Assembly (NCBI GenBank): GCA_963731735.1
Contig: CAVSWO010000002.1
Span: 470,001-534,000, forward strand
Length of the DNA: 64,000 bases
Source: Candidatus Kerfeldbacteria bacterium
Lineage (GTDB): Bacteria > Patescibacteriota > Patescibacteriia > SBBC01 > CAIJZX01
Reading direction: 5' to 3'
Both the position numbers and the translations under genes were made by a program. Under the pieces are notes generated by a model. It was given only the letters and a program-made list of their open reading frames with translations, did no database searches and had not been told where the DNA came from. Below are positions 40,420-61,513 of the stretch, piece after piece. The first letter of the stretch is position 1, and every line of letters begins with the position of its first letter.

Positions 40420-40953
40420 ATGAAACCCTTTGTGCCTGAACCCGCGCGACGATGGATCGGTCTTGGCCTGTTCCTGATTGGTATGGTTGCAACGGTTATC
40501 GCGCTGCAAATACCGGCGCTCTCGCAAGCAATCAAGGATCTTGAACATGCCGGATACTTTGGCGCCATCGTGGTTGGCATCATGTACGCGATCAGCCTAA
40601 CCTCGGCTACGGCCACCCTGGTATTCGCGCAAATTCCGGACTCACTCAATCCGATTATGATCGCGGTGGCCGGCGGATTTGGCGCCATGTTATACGACAT
40701 CAGTATTTTTTCATTGACCCGACGAACCAGTTTTCGTGAACGGGTTGCTCACTGGTCCGAAGCACTCACTCACCACGAAAAGTTACCGCGCTGGTTAAGC
40801 ATCACCATCGGAGCAATTATTATCGCCTCCCCGTTACCGGATGAACTCGGGGCCACCTTTTTCGGGACGAGCAACCTCCCATTCCGGCCATTTTTGGCAC
40901 TCTCATTCTCCCTGAATGTGGCCGGCATATTATTTGTAACCGGAGTGTTTTGA
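40420..40953 (+). CDS. hypothetical integral membrane protein
   Basis: 177 aa with about 5 TM helices. No recognisable domain. Its stop overlaps the next gene. Confidence 0.4.
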   Translation: MKPFVPEPARRWIGLGLFLIGMVATVIALQIPALSQAIKDLEHAGYFGAIVVGIMYAISLTSATATLVFAQIPDSLNPIMIAVAGGFGAMLYDISIFSLTRRTSFRERVAHWSEALTHHEKLPRWLSITIGAIIIASPLPDELGATFFGTSNLPFRPFLALSFSLNVAGILFVTGVF

Positions 40954-42326
40954 GTCGGAGCCGCACAACCGTAAAAAACTTTCGGACTAAGCTGCAGAAT
41001 CGCGCGCAGCGCATCTTAAAGGAAAACTGGGTGCAACTTGATGGCCAACGTGGCTTTACCCGGCCGGCGCATTTATATCCGTACCAGTGGAACTGGGACT
41101 CGGGGTTTATTGCCTACGGGTACGCGCATGTACACCCGCAACGGGCGATTCAGGAGTTACGGAGTTTACTTGACGGACAATGGACCAACGGCTTCCTGCC
41201 GCATATTATTTTTCATCGGGTCAAGGGAGAACATCGCCCCTATTTCCCCGGCCCGACGTTTTGGGAATCCCGAAAAACGAACCGGGCCGCGCCGGCGGCG
41301 GTGGCCACCTCTGGTTTGACGCAGCCGCCGATGGTAACCTTGGCCGTCTGGCACACGTATCACGCGCTGCACCGCCGCCAGCCGCAGGCGGCTCGCCGGA
41401 TGCTTCAGGAATTTTTTCCGAAGCTGCTCGCCCTGCACACATTTTTGTACACGGCCCGTGATCCGGAAAAGAGCGGGCTGCTGACCATCGCCCATCCTTG
41501 GGAATCAGGGTTTGATAATTCCCCGCGTTGGGACGCGGTGCTCAAGCGCATCCGGCCGCGGCGCGTGCCGGTCTACCACCGGCACGATCGTCAGCAAGCC
41601 GATCGGGGACACCGGCCAACTGATCAAATCTACGATCGGTTTGTTGATCTGGCCTTGCGCTTAAAACGCTCGGGGTACCCGGGCCGGATCCCGGCCAGCC
41701 ATCCGTTTCGAATTAAGGACAAAGTTTTTTCATCGATCGGATACCTGGGCAACCTGCACTTACAGCAAATGGCAATAGTGCTGGGCCAGCCCCACCAGGC
41801 AATTACCGGCTGGATAAAACGCTTTGAAGGCTCGCTGTTCAAACAACTTTGGAATCCAGATACACAAACCTTTAGTGATTACGATCTGGTTCGACGTCGT
41901 CGACTACCACCAAAAACGGTGGCCGGGCTGTTGCCGTTAATGACCGGATTATTACCCAGCCGGCAAGTCGAACGGATGATCAGAATTTTGCACCAGGCGA
42001 ATTTTTGTGGGCAAAAAGCCTGTGCCGTTTCCTTGACACCAACCGTTGGGATTTATCAGAAAGAGTTTAACCCGGAGATGTATTGGCGGGGTCCAATTTG
42101 GGTGAATATCAACTGGTTTTTGTGGCGGGCTTTGCGGCTGTATGGATTGCACGAACAAGCCCGTCATCAAGCCGCGCATATTACCCATCTCATCGCGCAT
42201 CAAGGTTTTTGGGAATATTATTCACCCACCACGGGTCAGGGACTCGGCGCCAAACATTTTTCCTGGACCGCCGCACTGGCAACAGATCTGCTCCATACGC
42301 ATCGTCAATCCACCAACAAATTGTGA
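40950..42326 (+). CDS. (alpha/alpha)6-barrel glycoside hydrolase, GH63/GH37/GDE_C-like (glucosyl- or mannosyl-glycerate hydrolase-like)
   Basis: LYPYQWNWDSGFIAYGYA resembles the GH63 (F.WDEGF) and GH37 (YYWDSY) signature loops. 458 aa. The WESGFDNSPRWD acidic block also fits this clan. Confidence 0.5.
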   Translation: MSRSRTTVKNFRTKLQNRAQRILKENWVQLDGQRGFTRPAHLYPYQWNWDSGFIAYGYAHVHPQRAIQELRSLLDGQWTNGFLPHIIFHRVKGEHRPYFPGPTFWESRKTNRAAPAAVATSGLTQPPMVTLAVWHTYHALHRRQPQAARRMLQEFFPKLLALHTFLYTARDPEKSGLLTIAHPWESGFDNSPRWDAVLKRIRPRRVPVYHRHDRQQADRGHRPTDQIYDRFVDLALRLKRSGYPGRIPASHPFRIKDKVFSSIGYLGNLHLQQMAIVLGQPHQAITGWIKRFEGSLFKQLWNPDTQTFSDYDLVRRRRLPPKTVAGLLPLMTGLLPSRQVERMIRILHQANFCGQKACAVSLTPTVGIYQKEFNPEMYWRGPIWVNINWFLWRALRLYGLHEQARHQAAHITHLIAHQGFWEYYSPTTGQGLGAKHFSWTAALATDLLHTHRQSTNKL

Positions 42327-42335
42327 TATACTTAT

Positions 42336-43575
42336 GGTGATGCATTATTCGCGCTACACGGCCGCCATCTTCCTGGTCACCCTGATAATTTTTGGGTCTT
42401 CAATTCAAACTGCGCGGACCGCGACCGTGGCCGAACGAACCGCCGGCCGGATTTTACTGCAGGTCGAACGTAATGGCGAAGCTTGGTACGTGTATCCGAA
42501 AACCTTAACTCGTTTTTATCTCGGACGGCCGAAAGACGCATTTGACGTGATGCGTTTTCAGGGCCTCGGTATCACCAATGCAAATTTAGCAAAAATTCCA
42601 GTTGCTGGAAGTTCCGATTCGGGCGACCAGGCTTTGCGCGATCGTTTAGCCGGGTATATTTTACTCCAGGTCGAACGGAACGGTGAGGCGTGGTATGTCT
42701 ATCCGGTTACGAAGCAGCGCTATTTCCTCGGGTATCCGGAGGACGCCTGGAACTTGATGCGTAATTTGGGCTTAGGCATCTCGAACAGCGATTTGGCCCA
42801 AATTCCGGTTGATAATGGCGTTCGGGTTGAACATCAAGGCGTGGTGTCCTCACGCGGGACGTATACAGTTGACTACCTGACGTTTGATCGGAAAAACCCG
42901 GAATTAAAAATCACCACGGATACAGGCAATGACGGTAACTGCGCATCGAATTGCACGGTCCTTAGCCTGGGTTCCTACGTGACGCGGCGAAATGCCTTAG
43001 CCGGTATTCATGGCACTTATTTCTGTCCGGCCGATTACAGCAGTTGTTCGAGCGAGGTCAACCATTACTTTTTTCCGGTCTTTAACAGTTATAGCCGAGT
43101 CTTCATCAATGGCGACCGCATCAAATATACCGCCGAACCAATGGTGGCCTTTGATTCATCCAATCATCCATTCTTCTTCCGCCAGACCAAGCAGTTTACC
43201 AGCGAGCAAGATTTCTATAATGACTTTGCGAACGTATCAATCGCGGCCGGTGGGAATGGACAACTTCGCGCAGCCATCAGCAACGGACCGGCACTGATTG
43301 ACAACGGACAAAATGTGGTCGGACAGTATGCGTTGGATTCAAAACAATCCAGCGTTAAATCATATCGCGGCGCCTTGGGCTGGAAAGGCGATACAATTTA
43401 TCTGTTGGTCGTCAGCGGTGCAACCGTCACCGATTCAGCGGCCGTGATGGAGGCTCTTGGACTCGACTACGCGATTAATCTCGACGGTGGTGGCTCAACC
43501 GCGCTTTACCAAGCCGGACGGTATATCATTGGTCCTGGCCGGAATTTACCAAATGCCGTCCTCCTCTCCCAGTAA
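42336..43575 (+). CDS. secreted protein: two copies of a novel repeat module fused to a phosphodiester-glycosidase (NAGPA/DUF2233-like) domain
   Basis: Signal anchor MVMHYSRYTAAIFLVTLIIFG. Repeats RILLQVERNGEAWYVYPKTLTRFYLGRPKDAFDVMRFQGLGITNANLAKIP and YILLQVERNGEAWYVYPVTKQRYFLGYPEDAWNLMRNLGLGISNSDLAQIP. The C-terminal block DYAINLDGGGSTALYQAGRYIIGPGRNLPNA matches the PF09992 core. Confidence 0.6.
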
Positions 43576-44056
43576 AGCGGAACGCTCGTGCGGGGTGATA
43601 CCGGTCTGGCACGACGGACGACGTTGGCGCTATTTACTGGTCCAGCATCTGAGCGGTCATTGGGGTTTTCCCAAGGGTCACGTAGAGCCAGGCGAGTCAT
43701 CCGAACAGACCGCCCGGCGCGAGCTGCGCGAGGAAACTGGCATTCAGACCGTTCAGTTGGTCCATCGTTTAAGGCTGCGTGATCGCTATACTTTTCGGAA
43801 GCAACAGGCGCATGTCCAGAAGCAGGTTGAATATTTCCTGGGAAGAGTCCGGAATCCAGCCTTCGAACGCCAAGCCGCGGAATTGATTGATGCCCACTGG
43901 TTCGATTACCGGACCGCCCGCAAGGTGCTCCGCCCGCTCAGTTCAGCCACTATTCTTCAACGCGCACGTCATTATTTACTCACCCAATCGCCATGGAGCT
44001 CGAAGACTTCCGCCGGGAAAAAGACAACTTCTTCCGCCAACCGGATTCACCCCTAA
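43553..44056 (+). CDS. Nudix hydrolase (Ap4A-hydrolase/NudH-like)
   Basis: GVIPVWHDGRRWRYLLVQHLSGHWGFPKGHVEPGESSEQTARRELREETGI is a canonical Nudix box. Its start overlaps the stop of the upstream gene. Confidence 0.7.
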   Translation: MPSSSPSKAERSCGVIPVWHDGRRWRYLLVQHLSGHWGFPKGHVEPGESSEQTARRELREETGIQTVQLVHRLRLRDRYTFRKQQAHVQKQVEYFLGRVRNPAFERQAAELIDAHWFDYRTARKVLRPLSSATILQRARHYLLTQSPWSSKTSAGKKTTSSANRIHP

Positions 44057-44493
44057 AGCCGGAACAACGAGCCGGATTTTCCGGTCTCAAATATTTTTCG
44101 GAAAATCCTGAACTCCGATTTTCTTTGCCACTTGATACCGAGGTGGCGCATGATTTCATCATGATGCAAACCAGTACCGGCGGGCAGCAGCGCTATACGC
44201 GAATCGGAAAAATTTCGTTTTCGGTGGCCGGCCAGCCGGCCGAACTATTTGTTTACAAGGATGAGCACGGATTTTTTCTGCCTTTTCGCGACGCGACCGG
44301 TCAAGACGCTACCTATCCGGCTGGCCGGTATCTTGAACCGGCCACCGGAGCGGATGGTCGGCTGACAGTTGACTTCAACCTGGCATATAATCCATACTGC
44401 GCTTACAACGAACGTTTTTCCTGTCCTATCCCGCCGCGAGAAAACTGGCTAGCCGTGCGGATTGAAGCTGGCGAAAAGCGATTTCACGAATAA
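43993..44493 (+). CDS. DUF1684-family protein
   Basis: FRREKDNFFRQPDSPL...GRYLE...DFNLAYNPYCAYNERFSCPIPPRENWLAVRIEAGEK matches the DUF1684 conserved C-terminus. Overlaps the Nudix gene by 64 nt. Confidence 0.6.
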   Translation: MELEDFRREKDNFFRQPDSPLKPEQRAGFSGLKYFSENPELRFSLPLDTEVAHDFIMMQTSTGGQQRYTRIGKISFSVAGQPAELFVYKDEHGFFLPFRDATGQDATYPAGRYLEPATGADGRLTVDFNLAYNPYCAYNERFSCPIPPRENWLAVRIEAGEKRFHE

Positions 44494-44499
44494 TCTCCG

Positions 44500-45258
44500 A
44501 TGTCTCCTGCCTTCCAAGCGGTTCTCGCAAGCACACTCTCCAGTCTATTCGGCCTGGCCGGTGGGTTTTTACTGCTCTGGCGACACGCCGGCGTTAAACG
44601 TTTTTCACACTACTTTGTAAGTTTTGCGGCTGGGGCGATGCTTGGCGCGGCTTTTTTTGATCTGCTGATCGAAGCGAACGACAAATTCCCGAATCAACTG
44701 CCGACGACGTTTACTTGGTTGATGGTCGGGTTTTTCCTGTTTTTCATTATCGAGCGGATCTTATTTTGGCATCATCATAGCCACAGCGAAGATGTGCACG
44801 ACGACCAAAAACCGATTGTCCCGCTGATTATTATCGGTGACGCGATTCACAATTTTATTGATGGCACGGTCATCGCGGGAGCATTTTTGATTAGTCCGCC
44901 GCTGGGGGTAGCCACCGCGATCGCGGTTTTCTTCCATGAGATCCCGCAAGAAATTGGCGATTTCTCAATTATGATTCACAATGGCATGTCTCGCAGCGCG
45001 GTCGCGCTTTGGAATTTTCTGGGTGCGCTGGTTAGTCCGCTGGGGACGATTATCACGCTGCTGGTGGCCGAACGCGTCCAGGGCCTTGAACTGCCGCTGG
45101 TTGGGATCGCGGCTGGAAACTTCATTTACATCGCGGCGGCTGACCTGATTCCTGAAATCCATCGTGGCAAGAGACTCTATATGTCGATTTTGCAATTGGG
45201 TTTGATGTTACTGGGACTGCTGGTGATAGTCTGGGTGAGTCGGGCATTCGCGGGATAG
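44500..45258 (+). CDS. zupT: ZIP-family divalent metal transporter (ZupT-like)
   Basis: His-rich loop HHHSHSEDVHDD, HNFIDG and HEIPQEIGDF ZIP signatures, and 8 TM helices. Confidence 0.8.
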   Translation: MSPAFQAVLASTLSSLFGLAGGFLLLWRHAGVKRFSHYFVSFAAGAMLGAAFFDLLIEANDKFPNQLPTTFTWLMVGFFLFFIIERILFWHHHSHSEDVHDDQKPIVPLIIIGDAIHNFIDGTVIAGAFLISPPLGVATAIAVFFHEIPQEIGDFSIMIHNGMSRSAVALWNFLGALVSPLGTIITLLVAERVQGLELPLVGIAAGNFIYIAAADLIPEIHRGKRLYMSILQLGLMLLGLLVIVWVSRAFAG

Positions 45259-45451
45259 CTGGAGCTTCCCAGGGCTGATAATCACCAAATTGAAAACCGT
45301 GCGGGGGATGACGCACTTGTCAGCCGCCAGTATTTCGTCTTTGAGCCCCCAAGTAGAAACAGGTATAGCCAAACTCGATCTGTCTCAGTCTGTTACATCA
45401 ACGGTTGGCAGACTTGCAGGAGTTGCATTTTTAGGCTAAAATCTGAGCCTC

Positions 45452-46933
45452 ATGAGGCTTTCACTCGTTGCAGCTAAAATCCTACCAAGTCGCGGCGCGA
45501 TTGCGGTTGGTATTTTTTCTGATCAACGGGCAGACGCGCTCAAGCGCTTACCGAGCGGTATGCGAAAACTGGCCAAGGCCGCGATCAGTGCGAAGTCGTT
45601 TGGCGGCTGGATGTCGACCTCGGTGATTCATGTTCCGGGAAAATCGCAACCGGGCATGGTGTTATTTGGGCTTGGGAAATCGAGCGATTGGAATATGCGA
45701 CGGGTGCGACTGGTCGCACGAGCCGCGGCCCGAACCGCTTTGGCACAAGGCTGGACCGGGTTGGCGGTGGACATTGAACCGATGATCGGAAAACTTGATG
45801 CCAACCACGTAACCCAACACGTAACTGAAGGGTTGCTGATGGGCGGATATGAGTATCATGGCCTTCGTAAATCACCCAAGCATGGTTGGCCGGAGATTTC
45901 CCGCGCGACGTTGCTGGCAGCCACGGTAACGCCGGACATGCGGGCGGCGGTGAAAACCGGCCGCCAGATCGCTGAGGCCACCAACCAAGCGCGCACCCTG
46001 GCCAATATGCCGGGTAGCCACATGACACCGACGGTCTTGGCCCAGGCGGCACGCCAGGTGGCCAAGCAGCACAAATTAGCCATCACGGTTCTGCATCGGA
46101 AACAGATGGAAAAACTTGGTTTGGGTGCGGTGCTGGGTGTGGCCAAGGGCAGCACCGAGGAACCGAAATTTATGGTGCTTGAATATTATGGAACGAAAAA
46201 ATCGGTGGCCCCAATTGCCCTGGTTGGCAAAGGCGTTACTTTTGATACGGGCGGCATAAATTTGAAACCCAGCCAAGGCATGGCCGACATGCATATGGAT
46301 ATGGCCGGCGGCGGGGCGGTGCTCCATGCCATCGGCGCGATGGCCGCGCTCAAACTCCCAGTCAACGTGGTAGCGATCATCCCCTCGGTTGAAAATATGC
46401 CAAGTGGTTCAAGCTATCGGCCGGGCGATTTACTGAAATCCTTATCCGGGCAGATTATTGAGGTCGGGGATACCGATGCCGAAGGCCGGGTCATCCTGGC
46501 GGATGGGATAGCCTACGCCAAAAAGTTTTTCAATCCATCGTTGATCGTTGACGTGGCGACACTGACCGGTGCGGCCTTGGTCGCGCTTGGCCAACGGGCG
46601 ATGGCCACCTTTACCAACCGAACAGCGATGGAGGAGCAATCGAAGCGAATCGGCGAGGCCAGCGGCGACTACGCCTGGCCGTTACCGGCTTGGGAGGAAT
46701 ATGATAGCGAAGTTCGCGGCAACTTGGGTGATTGGATGAATGTCGGCAAAGGACGCTGGGGCGGCGCGATTCATGGGGCGGTCTTCTTGAAGCAATTTGC
46801 CAACCCAACGCCCTGGATTCATTTAGACATCGCGCCGACCATGACGTCGATCGAAGGCGATCAATTAGCCAAGGGCGCGACCGGAACCGGCGTGCGTTGG
46901 TTAGTGGAATTTGTGAAGCAGCAGGTGCCATGA
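45452..46933 (+). CDS. pepA: M17 leucyl aminopeptidase
   Basis: GKGVTFDTGGINLKP and the NTDAEGR motif (VGDTDAEGRVILADGIAYA). 493 aa. Confidence 0.9.
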   Translation: MRLSLVAAKILPSRGAIAVGIFSDQRADALKRLPSGMRKLAKAAISAKSFGGWMSTSVIHVPGKSQPGMVLFGLGKSSDWNMRRVRLVARAAARTALAQGWTGLAVDIEPMIGKLDANHVTQHVTEGLLMGGYEYHGLRKSPKHGWPEISRATLLAATVTPDMRAAVKTGRQIAEATNQARTLANMPGSHMTPTVLAQAARQVAKQHKLAITVLHRKQMEKLGLGAVLGVAKGSTEEPKFMVLEYYGTKKSVAPIALVGKGVTFDTGGINLKPSQGMADMHMDMAGGGAVLHAIGAMAALKLPVNVVAIIPSVENMPSGSSYRPGDLLKSLSGQIIEVGDTDAEGRVILADGIAYAKKFFNPSLIVDVATLTGAALVALGQRAMATFTNRTAMEEQSKRIGEASGDYAWPLPAWEEYDSEVRGNLGDWMNVGKGRWGGAIHGAVFLKQFANPTPWIHLDIAPTMTSIEGDQLAKGATGTGVRWLVEFVKQQVP

Positions 46934-47742
46934 GCGGGCGCGGTTGGCTGATTACATTTGGCATCCTGGCAGTGCTTGGCATTGGCAGCTGGACGCTGAC
47001 CAAAACCGATCGCTATCAACAATGGCTGGCTGAACAGCAGAAGTCCGGATTACCGAACCCGGAATCGATTGCCGAGTCGATCGCCGCTCCGGCCGTCAAC
47101 GCGGTCGCCAATCGGCAAGCAAGCACTACCAACGCAGTCACCGAGATTCCGGCCGAGAAAAATATCGCCGTGCCGTTTACCGTCCAGGCACCAAACGCGA
47201 ATTGGGATCAGGATCATAACGAGTTTTGTGAAGAAGCCTCGGTGCTGATGGTTGGACGGTTTTTTCAAAAGCGACCAATTGTTGATGCGACCGATGCTGA
47301 AGCTGGTTTACAGCAACTCAAACAATGGGAACTCGATAATTTTGGCTACTATTACGATACGACCGCCGCCGAAACCGCTCAAATCCTGGAGGACGTGTAC
47401 GGACTGACGGTGGAACTGAAAACGAACCCGAGCGTAACCGATATCAAACAGGCTTTAGCCGATAATTCCCTGGTCATCGCGCCGTTTGCCGGTCGTGATC
47501 TTGGGAATCCGTATTACACCCCGCCCGGTCCGGTCTATCACATGATGGTTTTTCGTGGCTACACCCGAGACGGAAAATTCATCATGAATGATCCCGGCAC
47601 GCGTCATGGCGAAGAGTATGTTTACGATCAATCGAAACTGCTGGAGGTCATGCACGACTGGGTGCCGAAAACGCCGCGCACAATCCCCGGGAATGGTTCG
47701 CCGACGGGAAATCCGGTGGTGTTAATTGTTTCCCAAGCTTGA
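46930..47742 (+). CDS. membrane-anchored YvpB/Peptidase_C39_2-like cysteine peptidase domain protein
   Basis: TM anchor WLITFGILAVLGIGSW. The block VPFTVQAPNANWDQDHNEFCEEASVLMV...YHMMVFRGYTRDGKFIMNDPGTRHG matches the C39-like Cys...His(-Asp/Asn) arrangement. Its start overlaps the pepA stop. Confidence 0.55.
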   Translation: MSGRGWLITFGILAVLGIGSWTLTKTDRYQQWLAEQQKSGLPNPESIAESIAAPAVNAVANRQASTTNAVTEIPAEKNIAVPFTVQAPNANWDQDHNEFCEEASVLMVGRFFQKRPIVDATDAEAGLQQLKQWELDNFGYYYDTTAAETAQILEDVYGLTVELKTNPSVTDIKQALADNSLVIAPFAGRDLGNPYYTPPGPVYHMMVFRGYTRDGKFIMNDPGTRHGEEYVYDQSKLLEVMHDWVPKTPRTIPGNGSPTGNPVVLIVSQA

Positions 47743-47776
47743 GTTTTTCCCGTGATTGTGCTATACTCACAACACG

Positions 47777-48817
47777 ATGCAAATTCATCGCACAGGTAAG
47801 TGGGGCGCGGCCCCATTTTTGTTGTTCGCGGTAACGCTTTGGTGGTTCGCGCCGAGTCGCGTGCATGCCAATGTGAGCAACACCGTACGCGGCATGATTG
47901 TGCTTGAAGTTGAACGCAACGGCGAAGCCTGGTACATCGATCCGATGTCCTTACACCGCGTGTTTCTTGGTCGTCCGCAGGATGCCTGGGAAATTATGCG
48001 CCAACACGGACTTGGTATTTCCAATGCCGATCTCGCAAAAATTCCGCCGGCCGGGAGTTCCGCCAGTGGAGACTATGCGCTCCGCCAACGGCTGGCCGGA
48101 CGGATTGTGTTGCAAGTTGAACGGAATGGCGAAGCCTGGTATGTCTATCCAAAAGATTTAAAACGCTATTACCTTGGTCGGCCGTATGATGCCTTTCAGG
48201 TTATGACCCGCCTCGGCTTAGGCATAACTGAACAGGATTTGTACCAAATAATTTCCGAACGTAATCTACCGGTCCCGTTTACTGCCCAGGCGCCGTATGG
48301 CGTTTGGGATTTTGACCATGACAATTTTTGTGAAGAAGCTTCGTCGCTGATGGTTGCGCGGTATGTTCGCAACCAAGGTATCAACGGTCCTGCCGATGCC
48401 GATTCGGCCATGTACGCGCTTAAAGATTGGGAAGTTGCGACCCTCGGCTATCATAAAGATACGGGCGCGGATGATACGGCTCGCATGATGCGTGAAAACT
48501 ATAACCTGACCGTTACGGTCATCGACAATCCAACCGCCACCTCGATTCGCCAACAACTTGATCTCGGCCATGTCTTCGTAGCCCCGGTCGCCGGTACCTT
48601 GCTCGGAAACCCGTACTTTAGCGGTCTGGGCCCGCCCTACCACATGTTTGTCATCAAAGGCTATACCAACGACGGCTGGTTCATCACCAATGAACCGGGT
48701 ACCCGGCATGGGGCGGACTACACGTATCGGCAATCCACCGTCATGAACGCCTTGCACGATTATAACGGGGGTAATACGTTGAACGGTCCTCGCCGGATCC
48801 TGGAAATCAGTCCTTAA
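47777..48817 (+). CDS. secreted protein: two copies of the same novel repeat module fused to a YvpB/Peptidase_C39_2-like domain
   Basis: Signal peptide ...WWFAPSRVHA. Repeats MIVLEVERNGEAWYIDPMSLHRVFLGRPQDAWEIMRQHGLGISNADLAKIP and RIVLQVERNGEAWYVYPKDLKRYYLGRPYDAFQVMTRLGLGITEQDL. The C-terminus PVPFTAQAPYGVWDFDHDNFCEEASSLMV...YHMFVIKGYTNDGWFITNEPGTRHG is paralogous to 46930..47742. Confidence 0.55.
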   Translation: MQIHRTGKWGAAPFLLFAVTLWWFAPSRVHANVSNTVRGMIVLEVERNGEAWYIDPMSLHRVFLGRPQDAWEIMRQHGLGISNADLAKIPPAGSSASGDYALRQRLAGRIVLQVERNGEAWYVYPKDLKRYYLGRPYDAFQVMTRLGLGITEQDLYQIISERNLPVPFTAQAPYGVWDFDHDNFCEEASSLMVARYVRNQGINGPADADSAMYALKDWEVATLGYHKDTGADDTARMMRENYNLTVTVIDNPTATSIRQQLDLGHVFVAPVAGTLLGNPYFSGLGPPYHMFVIKGYTNDGWFITNEPGTRHGADYTYRQSTVMNALHDYNGGNTLNGPRRILEISP

Positions 48818-61335: not shown

Positions 61336-61410
61336 CGCGGAGAAGTGTAACGGCTGCACGGCGGGCTCATAATCCGCAGGCAGGGGGTTCGACTCCCCCC
61401 TCCGCAACCA
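61336..61410 (+). tRNA. initiator tRNA-fMet (anticodon CAT)
   Basis: CGCGGAGAAGTGTAACGGCTGCACGGCGGGCTCATAATCCGCAGGCAGGGGGTTCGACTCCCCCCTCCGCAACCA. It shows the C1xA72 mismatch and a G-rich anticodon stem. It closely parallels E. coli tRNA-fMet (CGCGGGG...GGGCTCATAACCCGAAGG...CGCAACCA). Confidence 0.7.
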
Positions 61411-61436: not shown

Positions 61437-61513
61437 GCCAGGGTAGCTCAGTTGGTTAGAGCGCGGGACTCATAAGCCCGAGGTCGGCGGTTCGATCCCG
61501 CCCCCTGGTACCA
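61437..61513 (+). tRNA. elongator tRNA-Met (anticodon CAT; alternatively a tRNA-Ile2 lysidine substrate)
   Basis: GCCAGGGTAGCTCAGTTGGTTAGAGCGCGGGACTCATAAGCCCGAGGTCGGCGGTTCGATCCCGCCCCCTGGTACCA. The D and T arms match elongator Met/Ile2 tRNAs. G1-U72 and A31-G39 are unusual. Confidence 0.6.

Follow-up and report, generated by a model that had tools for sequence, protein, structure and literature searches.

Two exported proteins encoded in the window, by which we mean the whole stretch of 64,000 nucleotides analysed, share a tandem pair of repeats, each of which, judged from its sequence, represents an undescribed extracellular domain of about 51–60 aa. From architecture and by analogy, we infer a binding function and a ligand for this pair: it would be a non-catalytic module that holds exported proteins on the cell surface, most likely on the wall or surface layer of the producing organism, a reading to which we assign a probability of roughly 0.55. 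The highly conserved module marks thousands of exported proteins of Patescibacteria, which represent a sizeable part of bacterial diversity, rely on contact with host cells and have almost no known cultured members.

The open reading frames named in a preliminary description of this DNA are real, but the start at 42336 given there for protein A lies 2 nt out of frame and the true start is at 42334 (Table 1). The product of 413 aa is identical to database protein P0268, and the full-length structure model places a helix at aa 5–21. Protein A matches PF09992 (NAGPA, E 3.4e-18) above the gathering score and has the NAGPA fold; D384, G385 and G386 of its NLDGGGS motif are invariant among 71 homologues. 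Protein C matches PF13529 (Peptidase_C39_2) with E 4e-6 and a score of 27.9 bits (cut-off 24), and both catalytic assignments made earlier are thereby upheld. This also applies to the third paralog, protein B, which contains a C39-like domain (PF13529, E 8.1e-11, 43.1 bits, cut-off 24) and a hydrophobic N-terminal segment and lacks the repeats. The catalytic parts of B and C are 47% identical, and in their alignment FCEEAS (Cys) and YHM (His) are common to both, which, going by the family, are the candidate catalytic Cys and His sites of protein C. The catalytic parts of all three proteins are ordinary members of the NAGPA or Peptidase_C39_2 families. Public annotation of A-type proteins consists of the catalytic domain alone, for example 'phosphodiester glycosidase family protein' (PF09992), and approximately 120 N-terminal residues carry no annotation. 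The module accounts for these blank residues in proteins that are named by their catalytic domain only.

With each repeat as query, tblastn detected exactly four module copies of about 51 aa in the window (E 1e-17 to 1e-23; next best match E > 0.7), two each in A and C, in agreement with the preliminary description. The copies had also been called nearly identical, but their actual identity is 57–69% at the protein and 59–67% at the DNA level. The AGSS.SGD.ALR.RLAG linker is indeed seen in both proteins; its LxxRLxG part also stands ahead of repeat 1 and is helical in the model, indicating that the true repeat unit comprises about 60 aa. Across relatives, the linker mostly measures 18–19 aa and in a subset about 69 aa, and the long linker of some relatives contains TSP3 repeats between the two copies.

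Table 1. Positions of the module-bearing genes, their paralog and their parts in the window.
Feature	Position	Strand	Description or basis
Protein A	42334..43575	+	413 aa: signal peptide, module pair, NAGPA-type phosphodiester glycosidase domain
Signal peptide region of A	42334..42432	+	aa 1–33; hydrophobic helix aa 5–21, ARTA-type cleavage motif
Module repeat A1 (ILLQVERNGEAWYVYPKTLTRFYLGRPKDAFDVMRFQGLGITNANLAKIPV)	42451..42603	+	tblastn, translation
Inter-repeat linker of A (AGSSDSGDQALRDRLAGY)	42604..42657	+	second half is a helix belonging to the repeat unit
Module repeat A2	42658..42810	+	tblastn, translation, model
NAGPA catalytic domain of A	42826..43572	+	PF09992; includes NLDGGGS motif
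Protein B	46930..47742	+	270 aa, membrane-anchored C39-like peptidase paralog without module
Protein C	47777..48817	+	346 aa: signal peptide, module pair, Peptidase_C39_2 domain
Module repeat C1	47897..48049	+	tblastn, translation
Inter-repeat linker of C (AGSSASGDYALRQRLAGR)	48050..48103	+	translation
Module repeat C2	48104..48256	+	tblastn, translation
Peptidase_C39_2 match of C	48269..48697	+	aa 165–307

The AF2 model of the tandem (pLDDT 93.2, pTM 0.86) predicts the topology strand-strand-strand-helix-strand-short helix for the repeat, with the linker helix at residues 66–72, and suggests that the 129-aa pair forms one compact folded unit. No relative of the module was found in the PDB by sequence or fold. 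Isolated repeats and query proteins gave no Pfam or NCBIfam match on the module even at E <= 10, and no family recurred on it among 48 two-repeat proteins scanned at the same threshold. LysM (PF01476), SLH (PF00395), SH3_3/5, PG_binding (PF01471) and CW_binding (PF01473) were found neither on the queries nor on the 48 members, and the top-25 partner-family tallies contained no LysM, SLH, SH3b, PG_binding or CW_binding; 3 of the 48 members gave sporadic, insignificant matches to WW or SH3_15 (E ~0.07). A PHROGs scan of repeats and family members assigned no family. Its sole nominal match, phrog_7068 'queuine tRNA-ribosyltransferase' (E 2e-4), covered 31 residues of a 346-position profile and was judged spurious. 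Literature searches by motif and by topic returned no description of the module either, and the earlier placement of the repeats outside the named binding domains is borne out by the Pfam, NCBIfam and PDB searches.

An exhaustive profile search yielded 3,714 clusters at 50% identity, 2,585 of them with E <= 1e-30, and a search across 185,579 species genomes confirmed at least 596 module loci. The 3,714 clusters demonstrate the wide conservation outside this genome by which the preliminary description would recognise a new domain family and, together with the well-defined predicted fold, rule out a low-complexity or lineage-specific expansion. Among the matches listed, the named records come almost exclusively from Patescibacteria and include Kerfeld-, Uhr-, Falkow-, Doudna-, Jackson-, Komeili- and Buchananbacteria as well as Parcubacteria. 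In IMG/VR, 8 weak loci were detected, in which single repeats are attached to a trypsin-like protease or to a protein without assigned function and among which there is no lysin; a phage origin or lysin use of the module is not supported. The module lends itself to description as a new Pfam family, and as a simple sequence tag it can be used to list the surface exoproteome of any patescibacterial genome.

The placement of the module follows narrow rules. Exactly two copies are present in 145 of the 147 top representatives; the pair directly follows the signal peptide in 95 of the 147, lies within about 5 residues of the C-terminus in 43 and stands alone in 8. Just upstream of repeat 1, a hydrophobic signal-like 12-mer occurs in 74 of 77 relatives with an N-terminal module. 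The partners are diverse, and dozens of exported protein types carry the module: NAGPA was found in 31 of 80 module proteins tallied, which otherwise contained CAP, C39_2, TSP3, LTD, beta-helix, S8 (subtilisin), C25, SNase and metallophosphoesterase domains, and Trypsin_2 in 16 of another tally of 114, beside PA14, PKD, Kelch and thioredoxin. VanY and M15_4 appeared among the 120 matches of a two-repeat query, and CARDB and TIG were seen as well; classical peptidoglycan hydrolases are few among the partner domains. One Doudnabacteria MAG encodes at least five module proteins with differing partners. Exported, terminal, tandem and joined to diverse passengers, the module has the positional features of the surface-anchoring class, and we take the strict terminal position and near-constant pairing as typical of anchoring modules.

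According to the mechanism that we propose, Sec export would place the protein outside the cell, with the pair either immediately behind the signal peptide or at the very C-terminal end. The pair would then attach non-covalently to a conserved component of a cell envelope, most likely in the wall or surface layer of the producing cell itself, so that the enzyme or adhesin fused to the pair stays at the surface; in the window, the enzymes retained would be the NAGPA-type phosphodiester glycosidase of A and the C39-like cysteine peptidase of C. A more specific proposal, to which we give somewhat less than even odds, is that the pair anchors a surface-display system largely confined to Patescibacteria and represents a new fold specific for a conserved polymer of the envelope or a component of the surface layer. 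If this is true, the pair would keep much of the exoproteome of these ultra-small episymbionts, including proteases, nucleases, phosphodiester glycosidases and adhesins, on the cell surface or at the host interface. A basic charge, which might have pointed to teichoic-acid binding, was not found: the pI of the pair is bimodal, ranging from 4.3 to 9.9, and its charge is inconsistent, which leaves the module without a general electrostatic signature of binding to an anionic wall polymer. As a small and confidently modelled target, the module is suited to binding or structural work that could reveal a component of the patescibacterial envelope.

The preliminary description had suggested targeting to the cell wall or to a host surface, which by analogy is plausible. 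Patescibacteria are largely episymbionts, and the pair might direct enzymes and adhesins to the surface of a host or prey cell instead of the own envelope. The positional and architectural evidence speaks equally for adhesion to the host; PA14, PKD, Kelch, LTD, CARDB and TIG are adhesin-type partners, and the degradative partners (proteases, nuclease, NAGPA) could be useful against a host envelope. However, about 30 of the 51 module positions are nearly invariant across many patescibacterial lineages, with E, E, W, Y, R, D and R among the nearly invariant residues; if the ligand changed from host to host, such conservation would not be expected. The same applies to the comparison with the catalytic domain in 70 NAGPA homologues, where identity to the window protein is 0.59 for the module and 0.51 for the catalytic domain and the module is the better-conserved part in 52; this slightly higher conservation would fit a conserved ligand. 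Moreover, the sharing of the module by several different proteins per genome resembles a general retention device, and we consider targeting to host cells rather unlikely.

Among known systems, retention on the own envelope would resemble that by SLH domains (PF00395), which are likewise tandem modules of about 55 aa, are located behind the signal peptide or C-terminally, occur on many exoenzymes and surface proteins of one lineage and mediate non-covalent retention on the wall, a function that for the present module is a proposal. In contrast to SLH domains, which come in threes, are all-helical and bind a pyruvylated secondary cell-wall polymer, the present module comes in twos, has a mixed beta/alpha predicted fold and shows no sequence match to them. 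If the more specific proposal of a surface-display system is true, the module pair would be the functional counterpart of the SLH domain plus secondary cell-wall polymer of Firmicutes. LysM (PF01476), SH3b, PG_binding_1 and CW_binding_1 are also repeats without catalytic activity and target secreted hydrolases to glycans of the cell wall, a role similar to the one proposed here, and the conserved aromatic hairpin of the module (GEAWYV...RYYLG) recalls the aromatic beta-hairpins of CW_binding_1 and WW, but the topology differs from these four families and no profile matched the query proteins at E <= 10. The structural resemblance to the cell-wall-binding domains of phage lysins (LysIME-EF1, Lys170 CBD, PlyCB) and to the EccB1 repeat stayed below the significance threshold, with 8–17% identity and no support from Foldseek. 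The lysin domains are contributed by separate chains that come together as tetramers or octamers (PMC7098653, PMC4769845), whereas the two copies of the present module reside within one chain. The role proposed for the module would parallel that of SLH, LysM, CWB2 and the phage-lysin domains, to which the module is unrelated in sequence and shows no significant match in fold.

The repeats could also assemble exoproteins with themselves or with each other, for instance into multi-enzyme surface complexes, instead of binding a wall polymer. Such scaffolding appears improbable to us, since every structural match was insignificant and strict terminal placement with a very wide range of partners is more typical of anchors. 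An intramolecular role as pro-domain, chaperone or regulator, packed on the catalytic domain and controlling its folding or activity, would be in line with the full-length model of A, which reached a pTM of 0.81 despite its three lobes. A fixed packing of the pair on the NAGPA domain may underlie this value and would likewise be compatible with regulation or a structural role. In addition, the repeat-repeat-NAGPA architecture of protein A is very stable among its 1,656 homologues, the best 120 of which are all about 400 aa long and cover 74–100% of the query. Against this role, the module is C-terminal or alone in the proportions given above and is also fused to non-enzymatic domains, and the TSP3-bearing linker splits the copies in some relatives, making an intramolecular role highly improbable. 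Least probable of all is a tethering of proteins to environmental DNA for nucleotide scavenging. The resemblance of M-R-x-L-G-L-G-I-x-x-x-D-L-x-x-I (helix-GLGI-short helix) to a helix-hairpin-helix motif was seen by eye, and nuclease (SNase) and LTD domains are among the partners; neither an HhH family in the 48-member scan nor an HhH protein in the PDB structure searches was found.

The proposal that the module was shuffled between differing catalytic domains is correct at the scale of the family, with its many fusion partners, but the similarity at the DNA level is not a sign of recent shuffling. Identity at third codon positions between the window copies is only 35–47%, indicating that shuffling was ancient. 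Furthermore, a Candidatus Kerfeldbacteria genome contains syntenic orthologues of both fusions with the same architecture and preserves the entire gene order of the 42–51 kb region. At locus L004 of Kerfeldbacteria, the protein C orthologue (60% identity over 328 aa, same architecture) adjoins the orthologue of protein B. With the DNA and third-codon identities given above and syntenic orthologues, recent duplication, gene conversion or shuffling within the genome was rejected. Repeat 1 and repeat 2 can be told apart family-wide with a held-out accuracy of 86%, from which we conclude that the pair is an old unit; the four copies of the window score about equally on the repeat-1 and repeat-2 models.

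The module of approximately 51 amino acids that occurs twice in protein A, a phosphodiester glycosidase of the NAGPA type, and twice in protein C, a C39-like peptidase, represents a domain family not described so far; its functional kind is already known, and it is not a new mechanism. No Pfam-A or NCBIfam family was found on it with the isolated repeats and the whole proteins as queries, even at E ≤ 10, and no family recurred on the module when 48 two-repeat relatives were scanned singly at the same threshold. A profile of the pair, i.e. both copies of one protein with the linker between them, matched no PDB sequence (best E 0.43), the predicted fold had no significant solved relative, and text searches of the literature by motif and by topic retrieved no description of the module. 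In public records, the carriers are named after the catalytic domain alone or are called hypothetical. An AlphaFold2 model of the pair based on a 48-sequence alignment was confident (pLDDT 93.2, pTM 0.86) and predicted the repeat topology strand-strand-strand-helix-strand-short helix; the pTM value indicates that the two repeats would form one compact body. Queries from window positions 42433–42819 and 47879–48265 gave a nominally significant match to phrog_7068 ('queuine tRNA-ribosyltransferase', E 2e-4) limited to the helix-GLGI-helix segment of repeat 1. Just 31 residues are covered, and the match is probably a local coincidence.

By sequence searches, the module family is large and sharply bounded; most of its members come from Patescibacteria, which carry it in great abundance. 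When 1.84 billion representatives were searched exhaustively with HMMER, 3,714 clusters were obtained at E ≤ 1e-3, of which 3,438 reached E ≤ 1e-10 and 2,585 E ≤ 1e-30; given this steep distribution, there are very few marginal matches and thus no visible distant relatives. The preliminary description, which had called the module unrecognised and expected a new domain family in the case of wide conservation, is borne out by these clusters together with the lack of Pfam-A, NCBIfam and PDB sequence matches. At least 596 loci carrying the module were confirmed in a scan of GTDB species (one genome per species); among the matches listed, those from Candidatus Kerfeldbacteria ranked best (74% identity), ahead of Uhr-, Doudna-, Falkow-, Jackson- and Komeilibacteria. 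The named ones among 120 matches of a word-indexed search were nearly all Patescibacteria (Falkow-, Buchanan- and Parcubacteria), the two other names, Aliifodinibius and Syntrophales, belonging to partial proteins on metagenome-bin contigs of 1.6 and 3.9 kb. Several, if not many, module-bearing TPA_asm records are titled "uncultured Gammaproteobacteria bacterium", which looks wrong: at least one of these loci, L001 (CAZFGG010000011.1), has the NAGPA-NUDIX-DUF1684 gene order in common with the window, at 63%, 44% and 69% identity, respectively, so that its title is not credible. Single-copy modules were also seen on IMG/VR contigs classed as viral (L081:4971-6047 and L082-L085), one preceding a serine protease of the trypsin type and another on a protein whose function is unknown.

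Coordinates of the three proteins and the module copies in the window
Feature	Position	Strand	Description	Source
Protein A	42334..43575	+	413 aa; hydrophobic signal-like segment, then two ~51-aa units	ORF list
Protein B	46930..47742	+	270 aa	ORF list
Protein C	47777..48817	+	346 aa; hydrophobic signal-like segment, then two ~51-aa units	ORF list
Module copies, protein A	42451-42603; 42658-42810	+		tblastn of units vs whole window
Module copies, protein C	47897-48049; 48104-48256	+		tblastn of units vs whole window

Judged by their profile matches, the catalytic parts of proteins A, B and C are ordinary family members. Protein A matches Pfam NAGPA (PF09992; E 3.4e-18, 66.9 bits with a cut-off of 25), and Peptidase_C39_2 (PF13529) was detected in protein C (E 4e-6) and its paralog protein B (E 8e-11), whose catalytic parts are 47% identical and have FCEEAS and YHM motifs in common. 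Protein B contains a hydrophobic N-terminal segment where the repeats would be, as noticed previously. The 413-residue sequence of protein A is exactly that of database protein P0268, which is encoded on an 822,872-bp contig; the start at 42336 proposed initially is out of frame.

Searching the whole window with each unit returned exactly four module copies (E 1e-17 to 1e-23) and no fifth one, all remaining tblastn matches having E > 0.7. The preliminary description was right about their number, but "nearly identical" does not hold: pairwise identity is 57–69% for protein, 59–67% for DNA and just 35–47% at third codon positions. The copies are therefore clearly homologous yet old, and the short DNA matches noticed between them result from amino acid conservation. 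The linker AGSS.SGD.ALR.RLAG was indeed present in proteins A and C alike; because its LxxRLxG portion also precedes repeat 1 and is helical in the predicted model, the real unit comprises approximately 60 amino acids. The gene run of the window (A, DUF1684, ZIP transporter, leucyl aminopeptidase, B, C, Fur, NUDIX, SufC) is matched on the Ca. Kerfeldbacteria contig JACPSJ010000004.1 (loci L002 and L004) with 48–74% amino acid identity, and the orthologues keep the two-repeat NAGPA and two-repeat C39_2 architectures, so that both fusions predate the divergence of the two genomes. The two-repeat NAGPA architecture by itself has 1,656 homologues at E ≤ 1e-10. Domain shuffling thus did happen, but long ago and on a phylum-wide scale; recent shuffling, as inferred from DNA similarity, is not borne out.

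Among the 147 best representatives, 145 contain exactly two copies. The pair begins approximately 30–50 residues from the N-terminus in 95 of them, ends a few residues from the C-terminus in 43 and makes up the whole protein in eight. In 74 of 77 genome-derived proteins with N-terminal module, the segment just upstream is strongly hydrophobic and often closes with an AxA-type motif. Single-copy versions are a minority, and some are truncated proteins. Repeats 1 and 2 can be distinguished family-wide (86% held-out accuracy), which suggests that the pair was passed around as a unit. The linker mostly measures 18–19 amino acids but approximately 69 in a subset (P0009, P0011, P0013, P0025 and other database relatives; loci L062, L068 and L071-L075) and is therefore expandable; calcium-binding repeats of the bacterial TSP3 type (PF18884) occur in many of these relatives, and in them the pair may be calcium-dependent. 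Partners at 80 genome loci were NAGPA (31), CAP (7), Peptidase_C39_2 (7) and TSP3_bac (5), besides LTD, beta-helix/NosD, CARDB, subtilase S8, C25, staphylococcal nuclease, Laminin_G_3, TIG, metallophosphoesterase, PA14 and more. In 114 representatives, including the C-terminal class, we found Trypsin_2 (16), Trypsin (12), CAP (5), PA14 (4), S8, PKD, Kelch, thioredoxin, SNase and others, and the word-indexed search added VanY, M15_4 and plastocyanin fusions. Few of the partners are peptidoglycan hydrolases of the classical kind, which speaks for caution about a wall-targeting role. One Doudnabacteria MAG has at least five module loci, with NosD-like beta-helix, metallophosphoesterase, NAGPA and two partners of unknown type.

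The obligate pair, its strict placement beside the signal peptide or at the C-terminal end, the very broad range of passengers with and without enzymatic function, the several carriers per small genome and the stand-alone forms make a non-catalytic surface-retention or targeting module most likely. Pairing, placement and passengers resemble the usage of SLH, CWB2, LysM and lysin cell-wall-binding domains. Compared with the window protein, the module of NAGPA homologues is 0.59 identical and their catalytic domain 0.51, the module being more conserved in 52 of 70, and approximately 30 of 51 module positions are nearly invariant family-wide, which argues for a conserved ligand. This high conservation speaks against adhesion to host surfaces, a doubtful though not negligible alternative; as the ligand site, the envelope of the organism itself is somewhat more plausible than variable host surfaces. 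Two further findings call for caution about the surface-retention or targeting reading: a consistent charge of the pair was not found (pI 4.3 to 9.9), and the model of full-length protein A (m75a98464e043, window 42334-43575; pTM 0.81 despite three lobes) hints at a fixed orientation or contact of the pair on the NAGPA domain. Pseudo-dimer packing and weak matches to trimerisation domains support an oligomerisation device, which we consider unlikely. Modules at the C-terminus, on their own or next to non-enzymes contradict a role as pro-domain or regulator, which seems very improbable, and binding of extracellular DNA via an HhH-like motif, which neither profiles nor fold support, is the least probable explanation. 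The module is of value as a tag for annotation and as an experimental entry point to the surface biology of Patescibacteria.

Directly upstream of protein A, positions 40950-42326 (+) encode an MGH1-like/GH63-type glycoside hydrolase (PF22422 and PF03200 in gene calls), which ends 8 nt ahead of the protein A start and is thus possibly co-transcribed. A NUDIX-like ORF (43457-44056, +; start likely near 43553) overlaps the 3' end of the protein A gene as well as the start of the DUF1684 gene (43993-44493). L001 and another module-bearing locus, L003, have a conserved counterpart of this ORF downstream of their NAGPA genes (43–44% identity); in a Logan record with the identical stretch, no gene is called at this ORF. 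Two tRNA-Met (CAT) genes at 61336-61410 and 61437-61513 (+), separated by 26 nt, may be an initiator–elongator pair or include a tRNA-Ile2 precursor.
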